Shown: piece after piece, positions 6,904 through 43,286 of the stretch
How positions within the stretch are numbered: position 1 is the first letter of the stretch
Layout of the letters: every line of letters begins with the position of its first letter
Position numbers and translations under genes: made by a program
Origin: a virus
Lineage: Duplodnaviria > Caudoviricetes
Virus record (IMG/VR): IMGVR_UViG_3300032007_000010
Strand: one strand, 5' to 3'
Length of the DNA: 64,000 bases
The notes under the pieces: model-generated
Told to the model about the DNA's origin: nothing
Database searches by the model: none
Seen by the model: only the letters and a program-made list of their open reading frames with translations

Positions 6904-6915
6904 TATATATTATAG
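6904..6915 (+). promoter_or_regulatory. Class I (early-like) promoter TATATATTATAG upstream of RNAP beta'
   Basis: GAGCTATATATTATAGCAA is nearly identical to GAGCTATATATCATAGCAA at 43283. Confidence 0.75.
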
Positions 6916-7023
6916 CAACGAATCGAATGAAAGGAGCATTGCAGCAAATGAAAAAGACAACGAACAGACGGCGGAAACGCTCATTCCCGCCATCGATCAA
7001 TTCAGACAAAGGAGAGGATCCCA

Positions 7024-8283
7024 ATGCCGGCTAAAACCAGGACACCCGGAAGGCTCAACATCATCAACCGAGATTCGTATCCATTGTTTCAGAAATCACC
7101 GGTGTTGGAGTATCCGGTGAAACATCGAATCAAGTCGGTGCACGTGGATCCCATTGACCATGACGCCGAGTATAAGAAACTTAAGGACATGGGGCGCAAG
7201 GTTGACATTCGCACGGCCGACATCTTCGTCAACGGCAATCAGAAACCGGACGACGGCATCTTTAGCCCCTACTTTGGCTCTGACACAACGCAGGATCGGC
7301 CGATCTATTCCTGCGAATGCCAGCGACTCAGCGGTGCCGCACACATCGGTGAGGTCTGCAAGCACTGCGGCAAGAAGGTTGTGCCCGTGATCGACGGAGA
7401 CCTTCGCAACCGAATGTACATTGACATTGCTCCGTATCACATACTCACCTATCATGGGTGGAACGCCATGTGCAAGGCGCTCAAACCAAAGGTCATGCAG
7501 GATATCATAACCTCGGTGAAGCGCATCTGCGTGAGCGGAGAAATCGTGGACGATGGCAAACCGACCATAATGAGTCTCTACGAAGACTATGAGGAGAAGT
7601 ATGAACCTCTGACCAAACTTCCCAAGAAGTATGCCTTCATGAGCAAGATTCCGGTCTACTCGGCAAGACTTCGTCCGCTCATGGTTTTTGGTGTGTCCAT
7701 GACCATGCTCGAATCCAACAAGCGGTATCTGTCCATCGAGAAGAATCGCGAGGCGATGGCGACGGCCCCAATCTTCATGACAAGCCGCAAGACCGAGATC
7801 CAGCGTTCGCTGAACCAGATTCAGCAGGACTGGAATGCGATCATGGAGCAGGTCGAAAACCAGGTCGATCATAAAGCAGGCGTCTATCGCAAGTCCCTCG
7901 CCTCGGGAAGAATTGACTATACCTCCCGCATGGTCATCTCTCTCGGCATTGATCTGATGCCCCACGAGGTGGATATCCCATACCAAACCATGATGGTTCT
8001 CTACGAAGAGAAGATCGCAAACTATCTCTCCAAATCCGAAAACATCCCGATCTCCAAAGCCATTGCGCTGGTCCAGGAGAACGCGATGGAACGCAATGAG
8101 AAGTTTGTCAACATAATCAACCAGATGCTCAAGTCCAAGGAGGGGGTTTGGGCACTGATCAACCGCAATCCGACCATCTCCGAATCGTCCATCCTCCTGG
8201 TGAGGGTGAGAAAAGTCCACAAGGATGGCACAGATTGGACCATGCATCTGCCTCCGGATATTCTCAGCCTCCTGGCCGCGGAT
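7024..8283 (+). CDS. rpoC: Phage multisubunit RNAP beta' N-terminal/middle subunit, exon 1 (probably non-virion RNAP)
   Basis: Zn site CEC…CKHC, SGRIDYTSRMVI (cf. GKRVDYSGRSVI), INRNPTI (cf. LNRAPTL), ends LLAAD at the splice site; spliced product 555 aa. Confidence 0.9.
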
Positions 8284-8642
8284 GATCACCAAACGAAAGT
8301 CCGCCTTGCAGGGTAACCTGCTTGAACAAAATCTGTGAACGCCTAACAAGCGGTGTCAGTGTCGGCTGGCTAACGGTAGAAGAAGAATAAGGTCGGGCAC
8401 AGGCTTAGGCCACCTGTGCTATACCAAACGACACGAAGGATCTTCGTAAGAGACTTTGAAACCAGGGACCCGAAGGCCCCTGGTCAGAATAAGAATACCG
8501 TGCTTGAACCCAGTACCGGAAGGGCTGGTAGTAGAGTGTAGAGACTATCGAAAGATTAGGACTTGGTGGAAGCCAGGCACCGAAGTGCAGATCTCCTGAG
8601 TGTAACGGAACCCAGGATGAAGAGATAGTCCAACCAATATCT

Positions 8643-9338
8643 TTATAACTCTAGCTCCTTAGCAAATTCATCGACAGCTGCAAGCGCATGTTTATATTGC
8701 TGATATTTATTTTGAGCGTCGAGATCATTGCCTCCATTATTCTTAGGGACATTACGCTTGGCATCTATATATTCAGCAAACGTATGACGACGTTCGGTAT
8801 TCGCATAGAATATGAAGTAACGATTCTTAAAAAGTTTTCCTCGTTGACATGCATCTGGAACGTTCTCGCGTTTTCCACCAATAAACTCGTGCACATTGGA
8901 TGTTCCTTTAAGATATAGCATGATAGAATCATCTTCGGTATCATATACGAATAACGCTTTAGGCTTTCGATTGAACGCTTTGCGATGTTTGCTAGCTCCA
9001 GTCTCACCACCCATGGTCGAGTTATATCCATACTCAGGGAGAATAGATCGATATTTCATGATCAACTCAACTTCTTTAAGCGATCTAAGATCAGGATCTT
9101 GCATGTAGATGGAGGCGTCTTCAACCTTAAATTCAAAGTTGTCCCATCCATACTTTACAATATCCTGAATAATTAGACTGCTTACGGCCGGGTCTCTCGA
9201 TCCTTCGGAATAACGCTTGACTGCAGAGATGTATTGCTTGAATCTGTTGGTCAGATTTTTCGTGGAACCGATGTAGATCTTCCCGTTAATCTTATTGGTG
9301 ATACTGTAGACGGCTGGAGTTTTCTCGGCTAATGACAT
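8643..9338 (-). CDS. GIY-YIG homing endonuclease, antisense within the intron
   Basis: AVYSITNKINGKIYIGST, conserved R, E and GYN; AT-richer than flanks; AGAGAGG RBS. Confidence 0.9.
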   Translation of the reverse strand: MSLAEKTPAVYSITNKINGKIYIGSTKNLTNRFKQYISAVKRYSEGSRDPAVSSLIIQDIVKYGWDNFEFKVEDASIYMQDPDLRSLKEVELIMKYRSILPEYGYNSTMGGETGASKHRKAFNRKPKALFVYDTEDDSIMLYLKGTSNVHEFIGGKRENVPDACQRGKLFKNRYFIFYANTERRHTFAEYIDAKRNVPKNNGGNDLDAQNKYQQYKHALAAVDEFAKELEL

Positions 9339-9365
9339 AATAAGCTAACCTCTCTTTCTATGTAA

Positions 9366-9377
9366 TATACAGATGTT
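9366..9377 (-). promoter_or_regulatory. Class II (late-like) promoter AACA-TCTG-TATA for the intron endonuclease
   Basis: Matches recurrent AACA-N4-TATA motif, just upstream of the RBS. Confidence 0.7.
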
Positions 9378-9409
9378 ATGCTCATTCATTTGTTACTAGC
9401 TGCGGGTTG

Positions 9410-9817
9410 TTCGATGGTGATCAACTCAGCTTCATAGCAGTACCGGACCCGACGTTTGTCAAATTGTTTATGCCAATGTGTCCGACATACACATTCATCG
9501 ACAGGGCGAACGGAAGGTTCAATGAAAACATGACCTTCAAGCGCGAATATGCAGCGCTCATCAGCGCAGCCTGGGAGATTGATCGTGCCTACGACGCATA
9601 TCTCAGGGACTTCGACCCGACTCCCGGTGAACCCAACCCACTCCAGAAGATCGGACTCTATCGTGAGGACGACGAGAACGGTCTCGAGAAGCGAGCAGAG
9701 CTCATCAAGAAGCTCGTACGTGCGGACAAGGGCAACGCCTTCCGGAAACGCATCCTCGGTGACTTCAAGGAGGACGCCGATGATAGCGAGATTTTGGACA
9801 TCGCACGGAGCCTGTGA
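9410..9817 (+). CDS. rpoC: RNAP beta' subunit, exon 2 (begins FDGDQ)
   Basis: Completes the catalytic DFDGD motif in frame after splicing. Confidence 0.9.
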   Translation, partial: FDGDQLSFIAVPDPTFVKLFMPMCPTYTFIDRANGRFNENMTFKREYAALISAAWEIDRAYDAYLRDFDPTPGEPNPLQKIGLYREDDENGLEKRAELIKKLVRADKGNAFRKRILGDFKEDADDSEILDIARSL

Positions 9818-21330: not shown

Positions 21331-23427
21331 TCATCGAGATGCGGCGATGGCGCGATAGAGATCACGCATCTGCCTGTCGGACTCCCGAGTTTCGCGCTCG
21401 AGCATGGCATAGGTATATTGCTGCACACCCGTGGGAACACCGTCGAATGCGACATAGACCACCTCGTTGCTCTGGTCGATGACCACGAAACCAAGCAGGA
21501 AGTCGTGCTCCATGATATAGGAGACCGTATCCCCGCTGAGGATATCGATGCCGTAGTGATCCTTGAGGTAGTTGGCCTCGGAGAGGGTCATCACGAGAGT
21601 TCCATTTGGTGTGTAGTTCTTGAGCAGGAAGATGTTGGAAATTTTGCTCCAGCGACGACGCTGACGGAAGGCAGACTTCCACTTTCCGGTGTCAGATCTG
21701 GCCGCCGCATCGCTCTTGAGTTCCTTGATCCCGAAGAGCAGGTCCGCGAGAGAACGCTCCTCGCCGGTGATGAACTTGATGAACTTGAGCAACGGGCGAC
21801 GATTGATGACACACTGATAGATGTCGTCGACGAGTTCGTTGGCCGGAGCCAGGTGCGTGTATGCTTTGACACCGATGATGATGCCGCGCTTGATCACGTC
21901 GCCGGTCTCCTTGAACTTGAACTGAATCTCAGCCTGCAAAAATAGCGGCATGACCTCGTTGGCCTTCTGCACATCCTGCTGGGTGAATGGACCATTGCGG
22001 AAGGGGTTGCTGTCGCGTCCTTGATCGCGACTACGCCTGAGCTCATCCTCGGCGGCCTGACGCTTTTCGCGCTCATCGTTGGCCTTCTGTTCGGCTTCGC
22101 GGCGTTTCTCACGTTCCTCGTTGGCACGCTCCTTCTCTTCCTTGGCCTTTTCACGAGCGGTTCTGGCCTGATCCTGCGAGCGTTTCGCCTGCTGTTCGGC
22201 ACGCTCCGCATCACGACGAGCGCGGTCAGCAGACTGTCTAGCGCGACGAGCCTTTTCCTCCTCGGAGATAGCCTCGGTGAGATAGAAGACTTCGGTGTCG
22301 GGGGCGGAGAGAAGTTTGTCAATGGTTTCGAGGCAGAAATCCATCGCGTCAAAATCCATCTGCAGAAGACCTTCACCCTCGCTGGACTCACTGATTCCCT
22401 TGCGGGAACGGAGTTCCTCACGACGCTTGTCGACGAGCTGAAGTCTCTTGTTGATGATCTTGATGTAGCCACCATACTGGTGCATGAACGCCTTGGGATT
22501 GGAGATATCCATTCCATTAAATTGGATGTGGAGAGTCTGCTTGGTCCCGTTCTCGGCGTTCTCCTTGACCTTGCGCTTGTAGCGAGTCAGGTACTTGGCA
22601 TACTTGTTCTTGAGTCCGTTGAGTTTGTTCTCATACTTCTGAAGTCTGACGAGCGAATTGCAGGACAGGATCCTGTTGGAGGGCACCGACTCGAGGCTGA
22701 ACTTGATCTTGTCGATGGCTCCCTTCACATTGCCAGACTCGTCCATGGGCGCAAGCTCCTCGTCCGAAACATCGGAGAGATCCTCGGTGGTGTCAAACAT
22801 GTTGGCCGTAGCCTCTCCGAGGAAGCCCCACTCATCGAGCTCCTCACGTGTTTTGATAAACTGTTCCTGGATGACTCGAATCTTGGGGTCGATGGGGCTC
22901 TCGTTGAACATCTCGTAGAGAGGTACGGTCTCCTCGACCAGCTTGATGAAGTTCTGGTTAGTTTTAAGAGACTGCTCCCAGCACTCCTTCAAGAATTGCC
23001 TAGTTTCCTCGATATCGGTTTCGGTGACCGGTGCCGCAGATTCGCTGATGCCTGCTGCGCTCTGGAACTGCCTCACCGCCCAGTTGCCGATGGCCTTGCC
23101 AATGTCACTGCCGGCGGTCCCCATGTTCTGGTGCAGTTGCTGCAGAAAACGACTCACGGCGTCGATGTCACCGGCCTTGATTTCAAAGGGCGGCAGCAGG
23201 TTGATGCATGCGACAACGAAGGAGGCATACTGCCTCTCGAGCATCTTCATGATCATGCCCTGCTCTTCCGGCGTCACCTGATTGCTCACGATGGTCGGAA
23301 AATAGAAGATCGAGTTGGAGCTGTAGCTCGAAATCGACCGAATTCTCGGATTCGACGCGAACTTTTCGGCGAGCTTCGGATCGCCGTGATTCAGCTGCTT
23401 CACGAAGCTGCTGAGTTCACTAAACAT
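21331..23427 (-). CDS. Putative virion structural protein (698 aa, start 23427) with E/R/K-rich helical insert
   Basis: AAGGAG RBS; ISES, FNES, LGEA, LTEA motifs; late-like promoter. Confidence 0.7.
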   Translation of the reverse strand: MFSELSSFVKQLNHGDPKLAEKFASNPRIRSISSYSSNSIFYFPTIVSNQVTPEEQGMIMKMLERQYASFVVACINLLPPFEIKAGDIDAVSRFLQQLHQNMGTAGSDIGKAIGNWAVRQFQSAAGISESAAPVTETDIEETRQFLKECWEQSLKTNQNFIKLVEETVPLYEMFNESPIDPKIRVIQEQFIKTREELDEWGFLGEATANMFDTTEDLSDVSDEELAPMDESGNVKGAIDKIKFSLESVPSNRILSCNSLVRLQKYENKLNGLKNKYAKYLTRYKRKVKENAENGTKQTLHIQFNGMDISNPKAFMHQYGGYIKIINKRLQLVDKRREELRSRKGISESSEGEGLLQMDFDAMDFCLETIDKLLSAPDTEVFYLTEAISEEEKARRARQSADRARRDAERAEQQAKRSQDQARTAREKAKEEKERANEEREKRREAEQKANDEREKRQAAEDELRRSRDQGRDSNPFRNGPFTQQDVQKANEVMPLFLQAEIQFKFKETGDVIKRGIIIGVKAYTHLAPANELVDDIYQCVINRRPLLKFIKFITGEERSLADLLFGIKELKSDAAARSDTGKWKSAFRQRRRWSKISNIFLLKNYTPNGTLVMTLSEANYLKDHYGIDILSGDTVSYIMEHDFLLGFVVIDQSNEVVYVAFDGVPTGVQQYTYAMLERETRESDRQMRDLYRAIAASR

Positions 23428-35056: not shown

Positions 35057-38000
35057 TCAGCGTGTGGTAAGTCGATCGATGATTTTGGAGCCGGCTTGGC
35101 CCGAAACATCCATGTTAAACGTCGAGGAGAAATCATCAGCTCTCGAGGTGGGAACCGCGGACGATCTTCCGCCAATCGCGGAAGTGCGTGTATCTACCGT
35201 GGTGTTGTCCTTGATGTCACTCAGAAGCTGAATCATCTGACCAAGCGATGTGGTGAGCAGCGAGAGCATGGCTTCACTGTTGCCTCCGGTCGTCGCCTGG
35301 GAGACGGCCCCGGTGATGGCCTTGGTGATTTCCTCGGCGGTGGATTGATCCTTCGCCTCGGTCCGCGCCTGCTCAAACTGATCATTGATTTCTCTGACGC
35401 GCATGTTGAGACTGTTGAGATTGGTTGTGTCATGACCTCTTCCCCAGCGTCTTCCACCACCATACTCGAGTCTCTTGAAGTCGCCGGCAGAACCGTTATA
35501 TCCAGCCGCTTCGGAAACTTCACGGGCATTGGCCGTGGCCTCGGCATCGGAACCGAGAGTCTTGAGCGCATCGTAGATCTGCTGGCCATAGCTGGCACGC
35601 GTATTCTCGACTGCGGCGGACTGATTCTTCGGCTGCTCAAAGTTGTGGAGCACGATGTCGGATGCCTGCTTGACGGTTCCGGCACCCTTGATCGCCCCGA
35701 GCACAGAATCCTTGTAGCTGGGTTTGTTCAGCTCGTTCCAGAGGTGGTCTAGCTGCAGCCCAACATCCGCGATCGAAGAACCTGTGGATTTCTTCAGGTC
35801 ATAGAGTTCCTGCTTGCGTGTGTGGTAGGTCCACTGAGCGAGTCCATATCCTCCGCCTCCGGGTCCGTTGTGAACAAAGTCATGCTCGGATATCGCACCC
35901 GAATCAACCTTGCTGCGATACTCCTCGTCATAGGCCGTGCGATTCTTTTGTCGATAGTCACCTTGTACGGCCTCCGGCCTTATCCCGGATTCGGCATAGA
36001 TGTTGCCCATGAGACCGGCGGTCGCAACCGCGGAGAGTCCCTTGTTGCGCAAATAGTTCCAGACCTTCTCACGGTTTGTGGTGCCGGAGATGTTGCTACC
36101 CTTTGTGCCGGATACGGTCTCCGTGGATCCTGTGGAACCGGCGTTTGCGCTCATGTCGTTGTCGGGGGTGCCGCCCCAGAGTGCATCGTTGGCTGTCTGC
36201 AGAATGCGAGTCAGCTTGCCGAGGAACCCAAGCGACGAATAGTCGTCACCGAAGGGGCTGCTGCTTGCAACGGTGGTGGTTCCGGTAAAACTGCCCGGAT
36301 CAGTGTAGCTGAAGGTTTCACCGTTTATGAATTTCTTGTATCTGCGCACGGCAAATACGCACCTTTGACGACTTTCGTCGAGTCGGACTTCGTTCGGTCC
36401 GGGCTGGGAACCATTCGTACCGCCTCCATGGCTCATGTCGATGCCGTTACCAACGTACATTTCGGTATGATTTGACTTGTACTTTGGATTGTACATGTAG
36501 ACGATGTCGCCGGGCTGGAGCTTGCTTAGATCAAAGGTCCTGCCGGGTGCGGTACCGGGCTGACCGAACCGATAGATATCCTGGAATCTTCCATCCTTGG
36601 ATTGCTCGGCGCTGGAAGCGGACATGTTCATTTCGTTGAGCACCTTGCGATAGGCCCAGCCAACGGTGGATGCACAGGATGCGATGCCGCGGTCTGGATC
36701 CTGGATGGAACTCTTGCAGCTGTACTGGATGCGACCCTTGATGCTATACATCGCGTTGACGAGCGCATTCTGTGCCTCGATGATCTTCGCGGCCTCCGCG
36801 TTGCTATCATTCACGACAACACCATCGAGTCGTACCCTGGCATCGCTGCTGTTGGTGACACCGAGGGATCGCTGAACTCCCACATTGTGCGCATAGAGAG
36901 GATCGTTCATGGCCGCTGCTCTGTTCGCCGCAGCTTCGGTTTGCTTTCCCACATTGTATTGGAGAAGCGGATCAGTCGTCGGTCCGCGACCCCAGCGTCC
37001 ACGGCCGGTGCTGTGCGAATATATGGCATTGTGGGTATTCTTTGCGATGCTGCGAATATTGCCGACACCGAAGGAACCGGTATACGGATCAGCATACTGC
37101 ATCGAATTCCCAGCGATTCTGCGACCAACGATGTAATGCTCATCGGGACCGAATGCGCCACCCTTGCCCATGAGCACGACGGGCTCGTTGCGGTTCAGGT
37201 TGGAGCGAATCGCATGTTCGGAGACCGGACCCTCGTTCATGTAGTAGCCGCGACCCCAGCGTCCACGGCCGAGATTTCCGAAGAACTCGGGATTGGTGCC
37301 GCCATCATTGGCTCGCATGCCCATGCGACGGGATAACGCATCCATGTCAGCGGGTGTGGCCGTATCACCGTAGGCAGATGCCACCATGGCCGCCGCCGTC
37401 GGTCCACAACCATCCCCGGCAAGATTGCTCCAGCGCATGTCGTCCTGACTATACACCTTCATCATGTTGGATCCGCGACCCCAGCGCCCACGACCATGTT
37501 GTCTCCTGTCGGTACCAGTCTTATGCGCAATGAGGCGCTGGAAACCACTCGAATTGACCACCTGCTGGTTCTTTTCGTAGCTGAGGTAATCATCCATCGT
37601 GTAGTCGGAATAATTAACCCAGGGTTTGCTGGAGTCTCCGCCGCTCTGCAGGAATTCGCCGTAGGACTGGCGCGCCGTTTCTTGCTTGGCCGCAAGCTGC
37701 TCGCGTTCCTCGATGGGACCAAGCCAATCCCAGAGCCATCCGGCGATTGACTTGCCGGAGATGATTCCACAGAGAAGACCGGATATTGCTTCGCCGGCGC
37801 CGGCGGCAAAGGTCATACCGGCGGTGACATCGTTGGGGAGAACCTCGAAGTAGTTCTGCGCGTAGTATGACCCCTTGATGAAATCGATGACCGCCATGGC
37901 GATCGTGAAGTACTTGCCAATCAATCTGGCCGTGTTCTGAATTTCGGCCGCGGATAGGGTCTTGATCACGTCATCAACATGACCAAGCACGAGGCTCGTC

Positions 38001-41000
38001 GCTTCCTGCGCCGTGGCTTTTCCGGTCACCTTGGCGAGGGCACTGGCAACCACCTTGTTGCTGAAAAACTTTGTGATGAGTTTCTGTGCCTGGTTGAGCA
38101 ATGCTGGACCGCCTCTCAGAGCAGTTCCGCTGGCCGTGCCACCCGAACGTAACCACGTGGTGAGACCACCGGCAGCGCCGCTGAGATAGCTAATCAAGCG
38201 TGTTCCAATCTTTGGAATGTTTGCGGCTACTCGATAGCCGTCCCCACGGTTGGCAGCCACGGCGGTGCCCGCCAGTGCGCTGAACACACCCAAGCCAGAT
38301 TCCGGTGCTGCGAGCGATCCGGTGTTTCCCGGAAGCGATAGCAAACCACTGCCCGCGGCAGCTCCTGCGCCTGCGGCTCCGGCCGTTGCCGTGCCACCGG
38401 CGAGAGCAGTTGCGGTCCTCAGACCTGCTATGGTGAGCACTGCGTTTTTGATCGTATTGAAGATGCCATCTCCGCTAAACGTGTTGAGCAAATTGCCGAG
38501 CATGTCTAGGATCGACGTTTTCTTCTCAGGATCACCGACAACCTGAAGCATGCGATTGTTGGAATTCATCGATGCGGCGTCGCGGATAGCGATCACCTCG
38601 GTCATGCTCTTGGCATTGGCGATGGCCTTGTCATAGGCCTGACCCTGATCACCGGCACCCTCCGCATCGTGATCAACCTTCGCATAGGTGCGAACATAGT
38701 TTCTGAAATCGACAACCTCATCGGTTCCTGCCGCATTGGCATCGCCGAGACCCTCGATTCCATTTCTTTGCTGCATGAGATCTTGCAGATCAGACGGTTT
38801 GGTCGGTCTATTGATGCTTTGGAGAATACCCTTTGCGGTTCCGAGGATCTCCGCGAGGTATCCATTGCCCTGGTTGAGGGCCACAAGCTCCGTGTCAGCA
38901 TCCGTGAGATCCTGCAACGTTGGATTTACGCGAGTCTTTTTATCCCGAGTTTTGCGTTCGCGCTTCTCCACCTTGCCGGTCGCGATAAACTCGAGGAGCT
39001 TGAACGGAGATGATAGTGCTCCCCCGACCATCTTTGCTCCAAAATTGAACAGACCCTTTGCTCTGCGCTTGAGGAACCCGGAGATACCATCTCGACCTTC
39101 TTCGTCGCCAAAGATTTTACCAACAACCTTTCCCGCGATCTTATCCCCAATGTTTACGAGTCCACCGAAGATCTTAGAACTGGCCTTCTTGAGCTTATCC
39201 TGGAGACCCTTGGCAGATCTGGATAGACGATCGAGGATGTCCTCCTTGAACCAGTCAGAGAATCGCTCGGTGAGTCCCTTGATCTTATCGGCGAGCGGGT
39301 CGATCATTTTCTTCTCGATGGAATCGTAGGCCTTGCCGAAGAGACCGCCTTCCTTGACCTTTTTCTTGGTGACGATTCTCTTGCCAGTCTTCGGGTCAAC
39401 CTCGCTGATCTCACGTTCGACATCCTCACCGAAGAGCATCTTCTGAAATCTGTCCGCGGAACCGAGTCCAACCAATCCGCCCAGGATACCCATGACCGGT
39501 CCGGCCACGGTGAGTCCGGGAAGAAGTCCCATGGAAGATACCGCAGACCACACACCCTTTCCGGCCAGGAAGCCGAGGGTTGCGGGTGGTGCATACTTTT
39601 TCAAATGTGCGGCGATCTTATCGCGCATGTTCTTGGAGATGATGCCGGAATCGCCCGTGACATCATCCTCATCGCCGAACAGGATACGCCTAAACTCGCT
39701 CGAGGATGCACCGAGACCGCCGATCGAGCCGATGAATGCTCCGAGTCCAGGCCCGATGCCAAAGGGTAACAGGCCAATTCCACCGGCGATGGCACCGGCA
39801 ACGAGGCCCTTCTTCATGCCGGGGAGGTATTTTGAATACACGTCCCAGGCTTTGTCTCCGAGCTTTCCACCCTTCCTCGTCTTCCGATCATGGGTGAAGC
39901 TAAGACCGGTCACCGGGTCAACACGAGTCTCCGTCTCGGTCACTTCGTCACCGAAGAGCATCTTCGTGAGATTCTCAGAACCATCGATGAGACCTCTGGT
40001 TGCACCGACGATCGAATGGAAGATTGGACCACCGGGGATGAACAATGATGTCAGAAGGCCGGTGCTCGCGCCGATGACCATGTTTGGCGCAGAACCCCGA
40101 AGCTCGTTCTTAACCTTCTCCAGCTTTTCCTTGGAGTCGTCCGAGCCAAACATCATATCGCCAAATTCATCGAAGCGACGACGGAGATTGCCAACGAATC
40201 CGGAGTATGTTGTCGTGGTTCCATGGGTCGGAGAATTCTCCTCACGTTTACCCTTACCATCCACGTATGCACCATAGAGGAATTTGTCGAGACCATTCTT
40301 GGCTCTGGCATAGGTCAATCCCTTGGATTCTTTGCCTATGTCACCGACAACGTTCATTGCGCCGGAAACCCAGCCTCCCTGGTACTGACCATTCTCATCC
40401 TTGGTTCCGAACACCGTTTCGGCGGCTTTGCGTTTTCTGTCATCCCAGTGCAAGAGATCCTTGAGTTCCTGACCGACTCGGGTGAAGAGTCCGGTATCCT
40501 TGTCAAAGAAGAATCTCTTCATCGGATCCCCGATATTCTTGGAGAACCAGTCCCTCGCCATGACAAAATGTGCCTGAACCGTTTTGGTGAGATAATCGGT
40601 GAGATTCACGTCCTCATCATCGAGATTGAGATGTCCAGCGGTACGTTCACCGTAGAGTATCTTGAACATCGTTTGGTCCGCGATGCGAAGACCGTTCTCG
40701 AAGAGTTTGAAGGGTTCACGTGCCAACCGTTTGAGCACCGCGATGATCCCGTCTTTGCCATCATATTTGACTCGCTGCCCACGAGTTGCGGCATCGCGGC
40801 CGAGAGGGTTATCGGGATCGAGATTCTTGGTCATGTTGAAGATCTCATCAAAGATCTGCTGATTGGTCATGTCACCATTGATCTCGATCGGAGACATGCT
40901 GTCCACGATGTAATCCCGGTGCAACTTCTGAGACGCCTCGCGCTGGATGCGCCGTCTGAGCTGTTCATCGGCATCATAGTCGCGACCCGTGCGTTTCTTG

Positions 41001-43186
41001 TAGTCTTCGCGCATCTTCCGATCTTTTTCTGACGAGGATATGCCTCTTCCGGAGGATGCATCGCGGATCGCATCGGCGAGTTTCTTGTCAAACACGGATT
41101 GGCTCGCAGCCGCATCCGACGCTGCACGGAAGCTATCCATGAGCAATGCGCCATCGGCACCGCCCATGTCATAGGAGTAGGTGATCACACCGCGACGCAG
41201 CATTGCGCGCACATCGGCGAGGAGGCTGTTTGTGGCACTCACGCCACCGGAGGAGAGATATCTCGCGAGATCAGGTCCCTCCATGGTGTTTAGTCGGTTA
41301 TTCTGGCGGAGGCGATATGCATCGAGTCCAGCCTCGCCGAGACCATTTCTCCATTGTTCGGCTTCGCTGATCAGATTCTTGCGCTCGATGTCGGACATGA
41401 AGGAGAATGCTCCGCGTAGACCGCTGTCGGCGAGAAACTGACTCTCGTATTGGACATTGCGTCTACGAGCCGCATGGGCACCGCTGAGACTGGCATCCAT
41501 GGCCATGCGCTCATTGCGAGGCATGGTTCTGAGAAGCTGTGTGAGAACTCTGCGGTAGGTTTCCATCTCGGCCGGAGTGGCTCTTCCCTTTGAGAAGTTG
41601 ATACTATTGATCAGTCTGTTGAATTCCTCGCTACCAGGTTCGGCAAAGCTATCTGCCTCGGCGGCACGCTGTAGATATAGATTGAGAAAGTCGCGAAAAT
41701 CCTCCGATTGTTTCGCGGTGCCAAGGTTTATGCGTTCGCCGCGCTTGATGAGTTTATTCCCAGCTTCGCCAAGGTTCGTGGAGAGATTTCTGGCACGGAT
41801 TCCGCTCTCGGCAACAACCTTATCGGCTCTGACAAGTCTGCCAGACCGGTAGTCGAATACCTGGAGAGGGCCTCCGGTGATGTGCGAGTCGATGCGAGAG
41901 AGCCACATCGGGATGACCTCTTCGATGGCTCGGACCGTCTTGTTGCTGAAGACTGCCCGATCCGTCATGTTCTGGGTCATCGTATTGATCTCGGACTTCG
42001 AAGCGTTGGATACTCCGAGAAGATTGAATAGCCAATCGATCTTATTGTCGGACCGGTAGGCATTCTTACCTCTCTTTGCGAACTGATTGAGTAATGCCGG
42101 GAAGAAGTTCTCGAGATTCTCATTTGTGCGCTTCATTTGCCGCTGAAGACTCTTGGGCGCAAGTTGCTTCCAGACCTCTCCGCCAATGATCTTGCTGAGC
42201 TCCATCCACGGATTGTCCTTGAAGCTATCGAGCATCATGTTGCCCATGCCACCGCCCATCATGCCGGTGACCATCGACATTCCAAACCCAAGCTGGCTTT
42301 CCTGGAAGTTTTTAACAATCTGCTTCCCATAGTTTCGGAGATCGAAGCCAGAACCGCGACCACCGCGGAACACTTCTAGTTCACGACCCTGCCGACGAGT
42401 GTTCACCGGCGGATTGACTCCATGATCGATGTGTTCCAGAAGACCAATGATCTTGTCCATCTTCTCCATGGTCTTGAGATGCGCTTCGCGGGCCACATCC
42501 ATCTGCGCCTGGGTGCTCTTGGATATGAGCTCGAAGGTCGCAGCCTGGGTCGTGATCATGTTGTCCATCTGGTTCATGAGCTGGGCGTGCTGCTTCAGCG
42601 ACATCTGCAGTGTCATCTGAGCATTGGCATTCTGGTTGGTGAGCAATGCCTCGGTGGAGTTGCCAAGTGCATCCACCATCACCTCGGCACGATAGCTCTC
42701 CGCATCCTCCTGGGCCTGCGCAAGACGCATGCTAAAGTCACGCTCATCGGATTCTGGTTTTTCGTCATCACCGATCCAGTTACCCTTATCATCGTACTTG
42801 CTCATGTCCATGCCACCGAAGCTCTCCAGAGCCATCATCTGGGACATGGAACTGCGCGCACGCTTGGGGTCATAGAGGTTGCCGGATCTCAGGTCATCAC
42901 CCATGTTCTTGGCGATTGCTCGAAGATTCTTGAAGGTATCCGAGTCGGTGACCCTGGAGATGGCACGTGCACTCTGCTCCGTCGGATTTCTCAGAAGTCT
43001 GACCGCATCGTTGAGAAGCTCACGATTCGTCTCGTAGAGAGATTTGGAAGCGGGCATCTCGGTTTCCAAGATGCTCTTGCCGGTTTCCAAAAACATGCGC
43101 CCCGCAGATTTTGCGAGGTTGGAACGACGCACGGCCTTTTCCACCTTGGATCGTGTTTCACGAGTGTTCTGATCCTGTCTAGGCAT
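35057..43186 (-). CDS. Tape-measure-like tail protein/tail-associated lysin (2709 aa): C39-like peptidase, NlpC/P60-like and phage tail lysozyme domains
   Basis: Helical N-terminus, Gly-rich TM repeats; YSQDD.RW…GCGPTAAAMV…HYIV (C39); CAS.V.WAY…LQPGDIV…HTEMYVG (NlpC/P60); AGLMGNIYAESG…GYGLAQWT…HNFEQP (Phage_lysozyme2). Confidence 0.85.
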   Translation of the reverse strand: MPRQDQNTRETRSKVEKAVRRSNLAKSAGRMFLETGKSILETEMPASKSLYETNRELLNDAVRLLRNPTEQSARAISRVTDSDTFKNLRAIAKNMGDDLRSGNLYDPKRARSSMSQMMALESFGGMDMSKYDDKGNWIGDDEKPESDERDFSMRLAQAQEDAESYRAEVMVDALGNSTEALLTNQNANAQMTLQMSLKQHAQLMNQMDNMITTQAATFELISKSTQAQMDVAREAHLKTMEKMDKIIGLLEHIDHGVNPPVNTRRQGRELEVFRGGRGSGFDLRNYGKQIVKNFQESQLGFGMSMVTGMMGGGMGNMMLDSFKDNPWMELSKIIGGEVWKQLAPKSLQRQMKRTNENLENFFPALLNQFAKRGKNAYRSDNKIDWLFNLLGVSNASKSEINTMTQNMTDRAVFSNKTVRAIEEVIPMWLSRIDSHITGGPLQVFDYRSGRLVRADKVVAESGIRARNLSTNLGEAGNKLIKRGERINLGTAKQSEDFRDFLNLYLQRAAEADSFAEPGSEEFNRLINSINFSKGRATPAEMETYRRVLTQLLRTMPRNERMAMDASLSGAHAARRRNVQYESQFLADSGLRGAFSFMSDIERKNLISEAEQWRNGLGEAGLDAYRLRQNNRLNTMEGPDLARYLSSGGVSATNSLLADVRAMLRRGVITYSYDMGGADGALLMDSFRAASDAAASQSVFDKKLADAIRDASSGRGISSSEKDRKMREDYKKRTGRDYDADEQLRRRIQREASQKLHRDYIVDSMSPIEINGDMTNQQIFDEIFNMTKNLDPDNPLGRDAATRGQRVKYDGKDGIIAVLKRLAREPFKLFENGLRIADQTMFKILYGERTAGHLNLDDEDVNLTDYLTKTVQAHFVMARDWFSKNIGDPMKRFFFDKDTGLFTRVGQELKDLLHWDDRKRKAAETVFGTKDENGQYQGGWVSGAMNVVGDIGKESKGLTYARAKNGLDKFLYGAYVDGKGKREENSPTHGTTTTYSGFVGNLRRRFDEFGDMMFGSDDSKEKLEKVKNELRGSAPNMVIGASTGLLTSLFIPGGPIFHSIVGATRGLIDGSENLTKMLFGDEVTETETRVDPVTGLSFTHDRKTRKGGKLGDKAWDVYSKYLPGMKKGLVAGAIAGGIGLLPFGIGPGLGAFIGSIGGLGASSSEFRRILFGDEDDVTGDSGIISKNMRDKIAAHLKKYAPPATLGFLAGKGVWSAVSSMGLLPGLTVAGPVMGILGGLVGLGSADRFQKMLFGEDVEREISEVDPKTGKRIVTKKKVKEGGLFGKAYDSIEKKMIDPLADKIKGLTERFSDWFKEDILDRLSRSAKGLQDKLKKASSKIFGGLVNIGDKIAGKVVGKIFGDEEGRDGISGFLKRRAKGLFNFGAKMVGGALSSPFKLLEFIATGKVEKRERKTRDKKTRVNPTLQDLTDADTELVALNQGNGYLAEILGTAKGILQSINRPTKPSDLQDLMQQRNGIEGLGDANAAGTDEVVDFRNYVRTYAKVDHDAEGAGDQGQAYDKAIANAKSMTEVIAIRDAASMNSNNRMLQVVGDPEKKTSILDMLGNLLNTFSGDGIFNTIKNAVLTIAGLRTATALAGGTATAGAAGAGAAAGSGLLSLPGNTGSLAAPESGLGVFSALAGTAVAANRGDGYRVAANIPKIGTRLISYLSGAAGGLTTWLRSGGTASGTALRGGPALLNQAQKLITKFFSNKVVASALAKVTGKATAQEATSLVLGHVDDVIKTLSAAEIQNTARLIGKYFTIAMAVIDFIKGSYYAQNYFEVLPNDVTAGMTFAAGAGEAISGLLCGIISGKSIAGWLWDWLGPIEEREQLAAKQETARQSYGEFLQSGGDSSKPWVNYSDYTMDDYLSYEKNQQVVNSSGFQRLIAHKTGTDRRQHGRGRWGRGSNMMKVYSQDDMRWSNLAGDGCGPTAAAMVASAYGDTATPADMDALSRRMGMRANDGGTNPEFFGNLGRGRWGRGYYMNEGPVSEHAIRSNLNRNEPVVLMGKGGAFGPDEHYIVGRRIAGNSMQYADPYTGSFGVGNIRSIAKNTHNAIYSHSTGRGRWGRGPTTDPLLQYNVGKQTEAAANRAAAMNDPLYAHNVGVQRSLGVTNSSDARVRLDGVVVNDSNAEAAKIIEAQNALVNAMYSIKGRIQYSCKSSIQDPDRGIASCASTVGWAYRKVLNEMNMSASSAEQSKDGRFQDIYRFGQPGTAPGRTFDLSKLQPGDIVYMYNPKYKSNHTEMYVGNGIDMSHGGGTNGSQPGPNEVRLDESRQRCVFAVRRYKKFINGETFSYTDPGSFTGTTTVASSSPFGDDYSSLGFLGKLTRILQTANDALWGGTPDNDMSANAGSTGSTETVSGTKGSNISGTTNREKVWNYLRNKGLSAVATAGLMGNIYAESGIRPEAVQGDYRQKNRTAYDEEYRSKVDSGAISEHDFVHNGPGGGGYGLAQWTYHTRKQELYDLKKSTGSSIADVGLQLDHLWNELNKPSYKDSVLGAIKGAGTVKQASDIVLHNFEQPKNQSAAVENTRASYGQQIYDALKTLGSDAEATANAREVSEAAGYNGSAGDFKRLEYGGGRRWGRGHDTTNLNSLNMRVREINDQFEQARTEAKDQSTAEEITKAITGAVSQATTGGNSEAMLSLLTTSLGQMIQLLSDIKDNTTVDTRTSAIGGRSSAVPTSRADDFSSTFNMDVSGQAGSKIIDRLTTR
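35435..37495 (-). repeat. Four GRGRWGRG-type peptide repeats; two share an identical 24-nt DNA copy
   Basis: CCGCGACCCCAGCGTCCACGGCCG at 36984-37007 and 37248-37271; variants at 37473-37495 and 35435-35458. Confidence 0.85.
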
Positions 43187-43220
43187 AAAATTCACCACCT
43201 TTCCGGTGTCATGTATACTG

Positions 43221-43232
43221 TATAAGGATGTT
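43221..43232 (-). promoter_or_regulatory. Class II promoter AACA-TCCT-TATA
   Basis: Exact motif upstream of tape-measure gene. Confidence 0.7.
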
Positions 43233-43286
43233 CGTTTTGGGCACCGCAAAGGTTTATCGTATTTCCGATTTTTCCCATTGTGGAGC

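Follow-up and report, generated by a model that had tools for sequence, protein, structure and literature searches.

An antisense GIY-YIG homing endonuclease gene with a late-type promoter in a divergent group I intron of a jumbo-phage RNA polymerase gene

In intron biology, a standing question is what prevents homing endonucleases from doing harm to their host. In bacteriophage T4, the endonuclease genes of the introns are served by middle or late promoters embedded in early or middle host transcription units (PMC2988022). In mycobacteriophage LittleE, the capsid gene contains a spliced group I intron with an endonuclease gene, gene 14, which is located on the bottom strand and transcribed leftward (PMC3706429). 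Antisense homing endonuclease genes are also found in group I introns of eukaryotes, i.e., the I-DirII gene in the rDNA intron of Didymium iridis, which has its own promoter (PMC3073962), and those in the nuclear L2066 introns (PMC9548176). In the jumbo phage PhiPA3, the endonuclease of an intron in the gene for an RNA polymerase (RNAP) subunit targets the intron-less allele of the co-infecting phage PhiKZ (PMC12908238). Also close to the locus described here are the introns in the RNAP genes of phage AR9, i.e., those in gp270 (with the HNH gene gp271), in gp145 (with gp147 and gp146) and in g189 (with g190), which belong to the same phage group and share the DFDGD target of the β' genes.

The DNA analyzed here, hereafter called the window, is a stretch of 64,000 nt corresponding to bases 179914-243913 of the 287,660-bp record of an uncultured virus, a ~288-kb AR9-like jumbo phage. 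Relative to the stored genome record, the window has three single-base substitutions, at positions 21543, 46881, and 47854, where it has T and the genome has G, C, and C, respectively. The RNAP genes are distantly related, with 24-31% identity, to those of Staphylococcus jumbo phages and of AR9/PBS1 and phiR1-37, which are jumbo phages with uracil-DNA, and a megablast search of phage records with the region as query retrieved nothing. We consider it probable that this DNA contains a mobile group I intron, inserted in the DFDGD codons of a non-virion RNAP β' gene and carrying, in its P9 loop, an antisense gene for a GIY-YIG homing endonuclease with a late promoter of its own.

The interrupted gene encodes the N-terminal β' subunit of the non-virion RNAP. 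Its first exon (7024-8283, plus strand) ends with the codons for LLAAD and matches phrog_2987 (RNAP beta subunit) with an E value of 7e-39. The best tblastn matches of this exon include phiR1-37 g274, AR9 gp270, and the "non-viral" RNAP β' subunits of Staphylococcus jumbo phages. AR9 gp270 is annotated as non-virion RNAP β'-N, and the host gene is its homologue. In the corresponding ORF (7024-8316), the β' frame terminates 33 nt past the LLAAD codons. The remainder of DFDGD, a universal Mg-binding motif, is found in a second exon at 9410-9817 on the plus strand (FDGDQLSFIAVPDP..., encoding FDGDQLSF..), which is collinear with the β' genes of the two closest relatives, L035 and L036. The β' sequences of these relatives are 71-72% identical to that in the window, and they are continuous here, reading ..ADFDGD|QLSFIAVNDP.. 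(ADFDGDQLSFIAVNDP). Their uninterrupted reading fixes the junction at 8283/9410 and, thereby, the insert at 8284-9409 (1126 nt), and it places the insertion point in the β' subunit at AAD|FDGD.

The D|FDGD site is empty in both relatives. L035 (4755-5166) and L036 contain a canonical group I intron without an ORF (51.6 bits with RF00028) in the same gene directly after DFDGD|, i.e., 12 nt downstream of the site used in the window. The empty site together with the other intron 12 nt downstream implies that these are mutually exclusive neighboring alleles in nature.

Scans with Rfam of the window and of the segment 8100-9700 revealed no match to the group I model (RF00028) at gathering score or at E≤10. 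The identity of the insert as an intron therefore rests on a structural and covariation analysis based on homologues. These were retrieved with a conserved 22-mer from the IMG/VR viral contig collection, which yielded 26 loci, 20 of which were distinct; a search of the same collection with a second motif pattern, from the P8 region, found nothing. All retrieved loci are located in a β' gene at the first Asp of DxDGD (D|xDGD). In addition, a BLAST search of the genome with the intron as query identified a related second element, hereafter called intron-2, in the β' gene of the virion RNAP. With the helices derived from the 20 distinct homologues, the insert at 8284-9409 can be described as a group I, IA-like intron on the plus strand, with the predicted 5' splice site after U8283 and the omega-G at 9409.

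The pairings at the predicted splice sites are those of a group I intron. P1 is formed between exon nucleotides 8278-8283 (GCGGAU) and the internal guide at 8299-8304 (GUCCGC), with a U.G pair at the splice site, and P10 between 8294-8297 (CGAA) and the first nucleotides of exon 2, 9410-9413 (UUCG). All eight introns with defined junctions have a P1 with six out of six pairs including the U.G pair, an omega-G, and a P10 of 3-5 bp, and compensatory changes are present. P2 is a hairpin with a GNRA loop, defined by comparison with the homologues. P3 (8331-8337, AUCUGUG, with 8586-8592) has 7 bp in ten out of ten sequences, and four of its seven pairs are changed on both sides. P7 is formed between 8543-8549 (GACUAUC) and 8624-8630, the latter within AAGAGAUAGUCC, and covaries in intron-2 and in L027; it is interleaved with P3, which constitutes the group I pseudoknot. 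A P7.1 helix, a trait of subgroup IA, is located between P7 and the 3' strand of P3. The P8 hairpin (8594-8617, UCCUG ... CAGGA) is changed on both sides at five out of five base pairs in some sequences. Finally, P9.0, as read from the sequence, pairs 8632-8635 (AACC) with 9405-9408 (GGUU), which adjoins the omega-G, and thereby closes the loop that contains the antisense gene. Also P9.0 covaries, fully in L027 (AAGG/CCUU) and partly in intron-2.

Some pairings that seemed plausible were abandoned during this analysis. CGGUG/CACCG was dropped as P3, since the 3' partner is absent in relatives, in favor of AUCUGUG/UGCAGAU. GGACU/AGUCC was dropped as P7, because GACUAUC/GAUAGUC covaries instead. 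The hairpin ACGAAG/CUUCGU looks good in the single sequence, but the comparative data favor GAAGA/UCUUC, a P5 of 5 bp with good covariation. For P4, UACCGU could pair with either ACGGUA or GCGGU; as the candidate strands are invariant, the assignment of P4-P6 is ambiguous. A conserved 50-nt insert is present between P3 and the candidate P4.

In an alignment of ten sequences, 94.1% of the cells form standard pairs, as compared with 27-42% in slid controls, in which the partners were shifted by 1-3 columns. Changes on both sides were found in 33 of the 52 pairs, and none of 500 shuffles equalled any of the observed measures. Furthermore, the J8/7-P7 element, AAGAGAUAGUCC, fits the Rfam group I consensus UgAAGAUAUAGUCu, and the half of the intron comprising P7, P3', P8, and P7' is similar to the intron in the close relatives that Rfam does recognize. 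Judged by structure and covariation, these introns constitute a genuine family of divergent, IA-like group I introns, which goes undetected with the Rfam model.

The loop closed by P9.0 is occupied by an intact gene of 231 codons on the minus strand (8643-9338). Its product matches Pfam PF01541 with 33.8 bits (cut-off 22.6) and PHROG homing-endonuclease families with E values down to 8e-18, and its residues 1-34 align with the catalytic domain of I-TevI (1mk0). The motifs VYS..IYIG..R, KEVELI, and YGYN, which cover the GIY, YIG, Arg, Glu, and GYN positions, and a common C-terminal region are present in all 17 family proteins. The GC content of the gene is 0.39-0.42 vs. 0.50-0.57 in the flanks. 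An earlier note on this DNA had described a GIY-YIG ORF in antisense orientation in P9 with its stop just beyond the P7/P9.0 core, and both statements agree with the mapped helices: the stop codon (8643-8645) is located 7 nt past P9.0. The ATG precedes the 3' splice site by 71 nt. The gene is preceded by a putative ribosome-binding site, GAGAGG (9349-9354, minus strand), as read from the sequence, at 10 nt before the ATG at 9338, a rather long spacer. The closest homologue of the endonuclease, 50% identical, is encoded by L027, which is located in a different β' paralogue, and the endonucleases of the intron at 8284-9409 and of intron-2 are only 21% identical. Thus, these elements are old and have moved between genes.

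Besides the ribosome-binding site, the earlier note had reported an exact AACA-N4-TATA motif ahead of the gene and had considered it a private promoter of the late type. The motif, AACATCTGTATA, is located at 9366-9377 on the minus strand (AACA-TCTGTA-TA). It conforms to the experimentally defined late consensus of AR9, AACA-6N-TA/G, in which the start site is the last base (PMC5312081); by this rule, transcription would start at A9366. The window contains seven copies of AACA-N4-TATA vs. 0.41 expected, a number reached in none of 100 shuffles, and the entire genome contains 34 copies vs. about 2 expected, mostly 0-60 nt upstream of the start of an ORF; the extended consensus is AACATCCnTATAAT. 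Among the genes downstream of these motifs are those for virion structural proteins, for the virion RNAP beta subunit, and for a 2730-aa protein that contains an endolysin domain, and such gene classes are late genes in AR9 (PMC5312081). The exact motif is also found upstream of the antisense ORF in L027, L031, and L017, and intron-2 has a copy with one mismatch, AACATATATTTA, which still reads AACA-6N-TA. Hence, the assignment to the late class, drawn from the match to AR9, the genes that follow the motif, and its conservation, has held up. The 2730-aa ORF (35057-43249, minus strand), which has a late motif ahead of it and an endolysin-like domain near residues 2350-2530, probably encodes a virion-associated lysin or a tail protein.

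The host gene is preceded by a motif of another class. An AR9-type early promoter motif (cTATATATTATag-N-G) is located on the plus strand at 6904-6920, 110 nt upstream of the start of the RNAP β' gene; the early consensus in AR9 is AAATATATATTAT-6N-G (PMC5312081). Nine copies of TATATATTAT are found genome-wide, as compared with an expectation of 0.18 per strand, and nearly all of them are located upstream of ORFs on the coding strand. The sequence cTATATATTATag is present at 6904-6913 of the window and at eight other sites in the genome, and eight of these nine sites are on the plus strand. By their sequence and positions, these sites probably mark early genes read by the virion polymerase. 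A search of the genome with AR9 gp226, the promoter-recognition subunit, gave no match, which, as the gp226 family diverges fast, does not show that the subunit is absent. An early host gene with a late endonuclease gene inside it is the best-supported reading of these motifs.

The antisense layout is not confined to this intron. Among the 19 family introns with an ORF, 12 contain an antisense GIY-YIG gene directly after the 3' strand of P7, i.e., the intron at 8284-9409, intron-2, L014, L016, L017, L019, L022, L024, L026, L027, L030, and L031. In the remaining seven (L009, L012, L018, L021, L028, L032, and L033), the P6 loop contains a homologous gene in sense orientation, which is frameshifted in L021. 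Outside these 19 are the L015 group and L023, which are ORF-less, and L020, which is cut off. The earlier note had remarked that intron endonuclease genes of phages mostly have the sense orientation. This is true for the annotated RNAP-intron endonucleases of AR9 and Madawaska, all of which are in sense, but within the present family antisense is the majority orientation. A hairpin in L014 that was considered as a terminator after the antisense ORF was rejected, as it sits in the P8 loop.

Several family members have peculiarities of their own. L017 and L019 contain a second antisense ORF (122 and 137 aa, respectively) in a hairpin loop between P3 and P4. In L019, moreover, the 3' splice site is preceded by ~350 extra nt, which comprise a second AUAGUCC element and an arm of tRNA-like sequence, GGTTCGAGTCC, and this segment is possibly a nested element. 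In L031, the closest homologue in the same gene type, there is no G at the position where AAD-IDGD would be restored, and P1 is imperfect; this intron either uses different splice sites or is decaying.

Intron-2 repeats the layout with an antisense GIY-YIG gene and a late-type promoter, and its host gene bears a late-like promoter, GACATTTCTATAAT. The locus is located outside the window, at 82789-84430 of the genome (G000; 1228-2869 of L004), and the same Asp is split by the intron. On the 3' side of intron-2 follow a micro-exon of 10 nt (TATGACGGAG) and a small ORF-less group II intron (RF02004, 66 bits; RF00029, 45.5 bits). The sequence YDGDTVSLRPVFTKEANAECE of the homologues is restored with no junction other than GGAG|...|ACACTG, which puts the 3' splice site of the group II intron 13 nt past the end of D6 in the Rfam match.

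In the reading that we prefer, the injected virion polymerase would transcribe the β' gene early in infection from the promoter at ~6904. The contiguous part of the ribozyme core (8284-8631) would fold, whilst P9.0, the omega-G, and the exon strand of P10 would come from ~770 nt downstream, and the intron would then splice out. Once assembled, the non-virion polymerase would read the AACA-N6-TA motif at 9377-9366 on the minus strand, which would yield an endonuclease mRNA with a short leader. The endonuclease would cut intron-less D|FDGD alleles of co-infecting relatives, resulting in homing of the intron or in exclusion of the rival allele. Most simply, the antisense placement would serve to uncouple expression of the endonuclease from the early host transcript.

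According to the earlier note, the endonuclease is made only after the RNAP it interrupts has become active. This is consistent with a non-virion RNAP gene as the host and with its early promoter motif: in a gp270 homologue with an early promoter and a late motif inside, the endonuclease would be transcribed by the very enzyme whose gene it interrupts. However, intron-2 has the same layout in the β' gene of the virion RNAP, which is not the late polymerase. In the light of intron-2, the dependence resembles ordinary late timing, as with I-TevI in T4, more than a feedback made for the purpose. Late expression from a private promoter would thus be the general rule, as in T4; the dependence on the polymerase that the intron interrupts is probably only incidental to it, and the feedback loop probably a by-product. 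A more far-reaching version of the proposal would be that this is a family of RNAP introns with the endonuclease gene in antisense behind a promoter used by the late polymerase only, and that, in the non-virion gene, production of the endonuclease is conditional on the intron's own splicing, a "splice first, cut later" checkpoint, with the convergent late transcript feeding back on the polymerase mRNA. We regard this version as tentative and rather doubtful.

Similarly doubtful, in our view, is the possibility, raised already in the earlier note, that the endonuclease functions chiefly as a weapon interfering with co-infecting relatives, beyond the spread of the intron itself. Such a role would be analogous to that of the PhiPA3 endonuclease against PhiKZ (PMC12908238), and it would fit with the situation in L035 and L036 discussed above, where the empty D|FDGD site and the ORF-less intron 12 nt downstream are mutually exclusive with the allele in the window. 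However, this downstream intron replaces part of the would-be target in exactly these relatives.

It is less likely still that the late antisense transcript is mainly regulatory. In this scenario, a transcript starting at 9366 would run through the endonuclease gene into the core and exon 1, where base pairing with the β' pre-mRNA, or a collision with transcription of the β' gene, would lower splicing or polymerase synthesis late in infection, the negative feedback suggested in the earlier note. With the stop codon at 7 nt from P9.0, any transcript that reaches the stop enters the ribozyme core. The sole terminator-like site on the minus strand 3' of the endonuclease gene is a weak hairpin at 6967-6994, found in a consensus scan, with a 12-bp stem and a T-rich tail, just upstream of the start of the β' gene; however, the scan uses a bacterial-type consensus, and it counts no more such sites in the region than in shuffles. 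A published antisense RNA in a cyanophage, reportedly described by Millard in 2010, is said to span the psbA intron region. In AR9, seven late promoters drive antisense transcription (PMC5312081). Against a mainly regulatory role, the host gene of intron-2, which shares the layout, is by its promoter GACATTTCTATAAT itself late, and feedback on early expression would be senseless there.

That the ORF is a decaying relic, the promoter match a matter of chance, and the intron now immobile is very improbable: ORF-less members and a frameshifted sense-strand ORF do occur in the family (the L015 group and L023, and L021, respectively), but the 231-aa ORF is intact, has kept every catalytic position and is 50% identical to the L027 protein, and an exact AACA-N4-TATA motif, with a chance of ~0.005 per 80-nt stretch as estimated from base composition, is found at the same place in four related introns.

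With a mobile intron carrying a late-expressed antisense endonuclease gene as the preferred reading, the locus can be compared with the systems described at the outset. In AR9, the intron in gp270 interrupts the motif at DYDG|D, at a distance of 9 nt from the insertion site in the window. The AR9 endonuclease genes are all located on the sense strand and encode HNH, Vsr, or Hef-like proteins, whereas the gene in the window is antisense and of the GIY-YIG type. AR9 g190 also has its own promoter, of a temporal class different from that of its host gene, but in that case an early gene is located within a late gene, which is the reverse of the timing that we infer here. The T4 introns are likewise phage introns of the IA type, and I-TevI and I-TevII are GIY-YIG enzymes. 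However, the T4 ORFs are located on the sense strand and rely on sequestration of their ribosome-binding sites in early transcripts. Moreover, I-TevI represses its own promoter via an operator that resembles its homing site, whereas a comparison of the homing site with the promoter region here gave a best similarity of only 11/20, which was equalled in 283 of 300 shuffles.

The endonuclease gene of LittleE shares the antisense orientation, but it is of the LAGLIDADG/HNH type, is located in a capsid gene without a defined promoter, and is a single reported case, as opposed to the family described here. The I-DirII gene of Didymium and those in the L2066 introns are located in eukaryotic nuclear rDNA and differ by the His-Cys box, the Pol II promoter, the spliceosomal intron, and the poly(A) tail. 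PhiPA3 and PhiKZ belong to the Chimalliviridae, and the target there is a virion RNAP gene instead of a non-virion gene; activity was demonstrated in that system, whereas it is predicted for the present endonuclease.

Antisense endonuclease genes (LittleE and Didymium), late intron promoters (T4), and introns in polymerase genes at DFDGD (AR9) are thus already known. What we believe to be new is that an antisense GIY-YIG gene in P9 is the dominant form in a sizeable, Rfam-invisible intron family at the active site of the polymerase, and that the promoter belongs to a class that can be named. The layout is present in at least 12 distinct introns at the Mg-binding motif of the polymerase, one of the most conserved sites in biology. 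As the group I model of Rfam does not detect this family, phage genomes probably contain more introns of this kind than are annotated. The mutually exclusive neighboring alleles offer a natural system for the study of intron-mediated competition between giant phages. To the question of how homing endonucleases are kept from harming the host, the answer here appears to be inversion of the strand combined with a late promoter, and its well-defined consensus makes this a clean and testable case.
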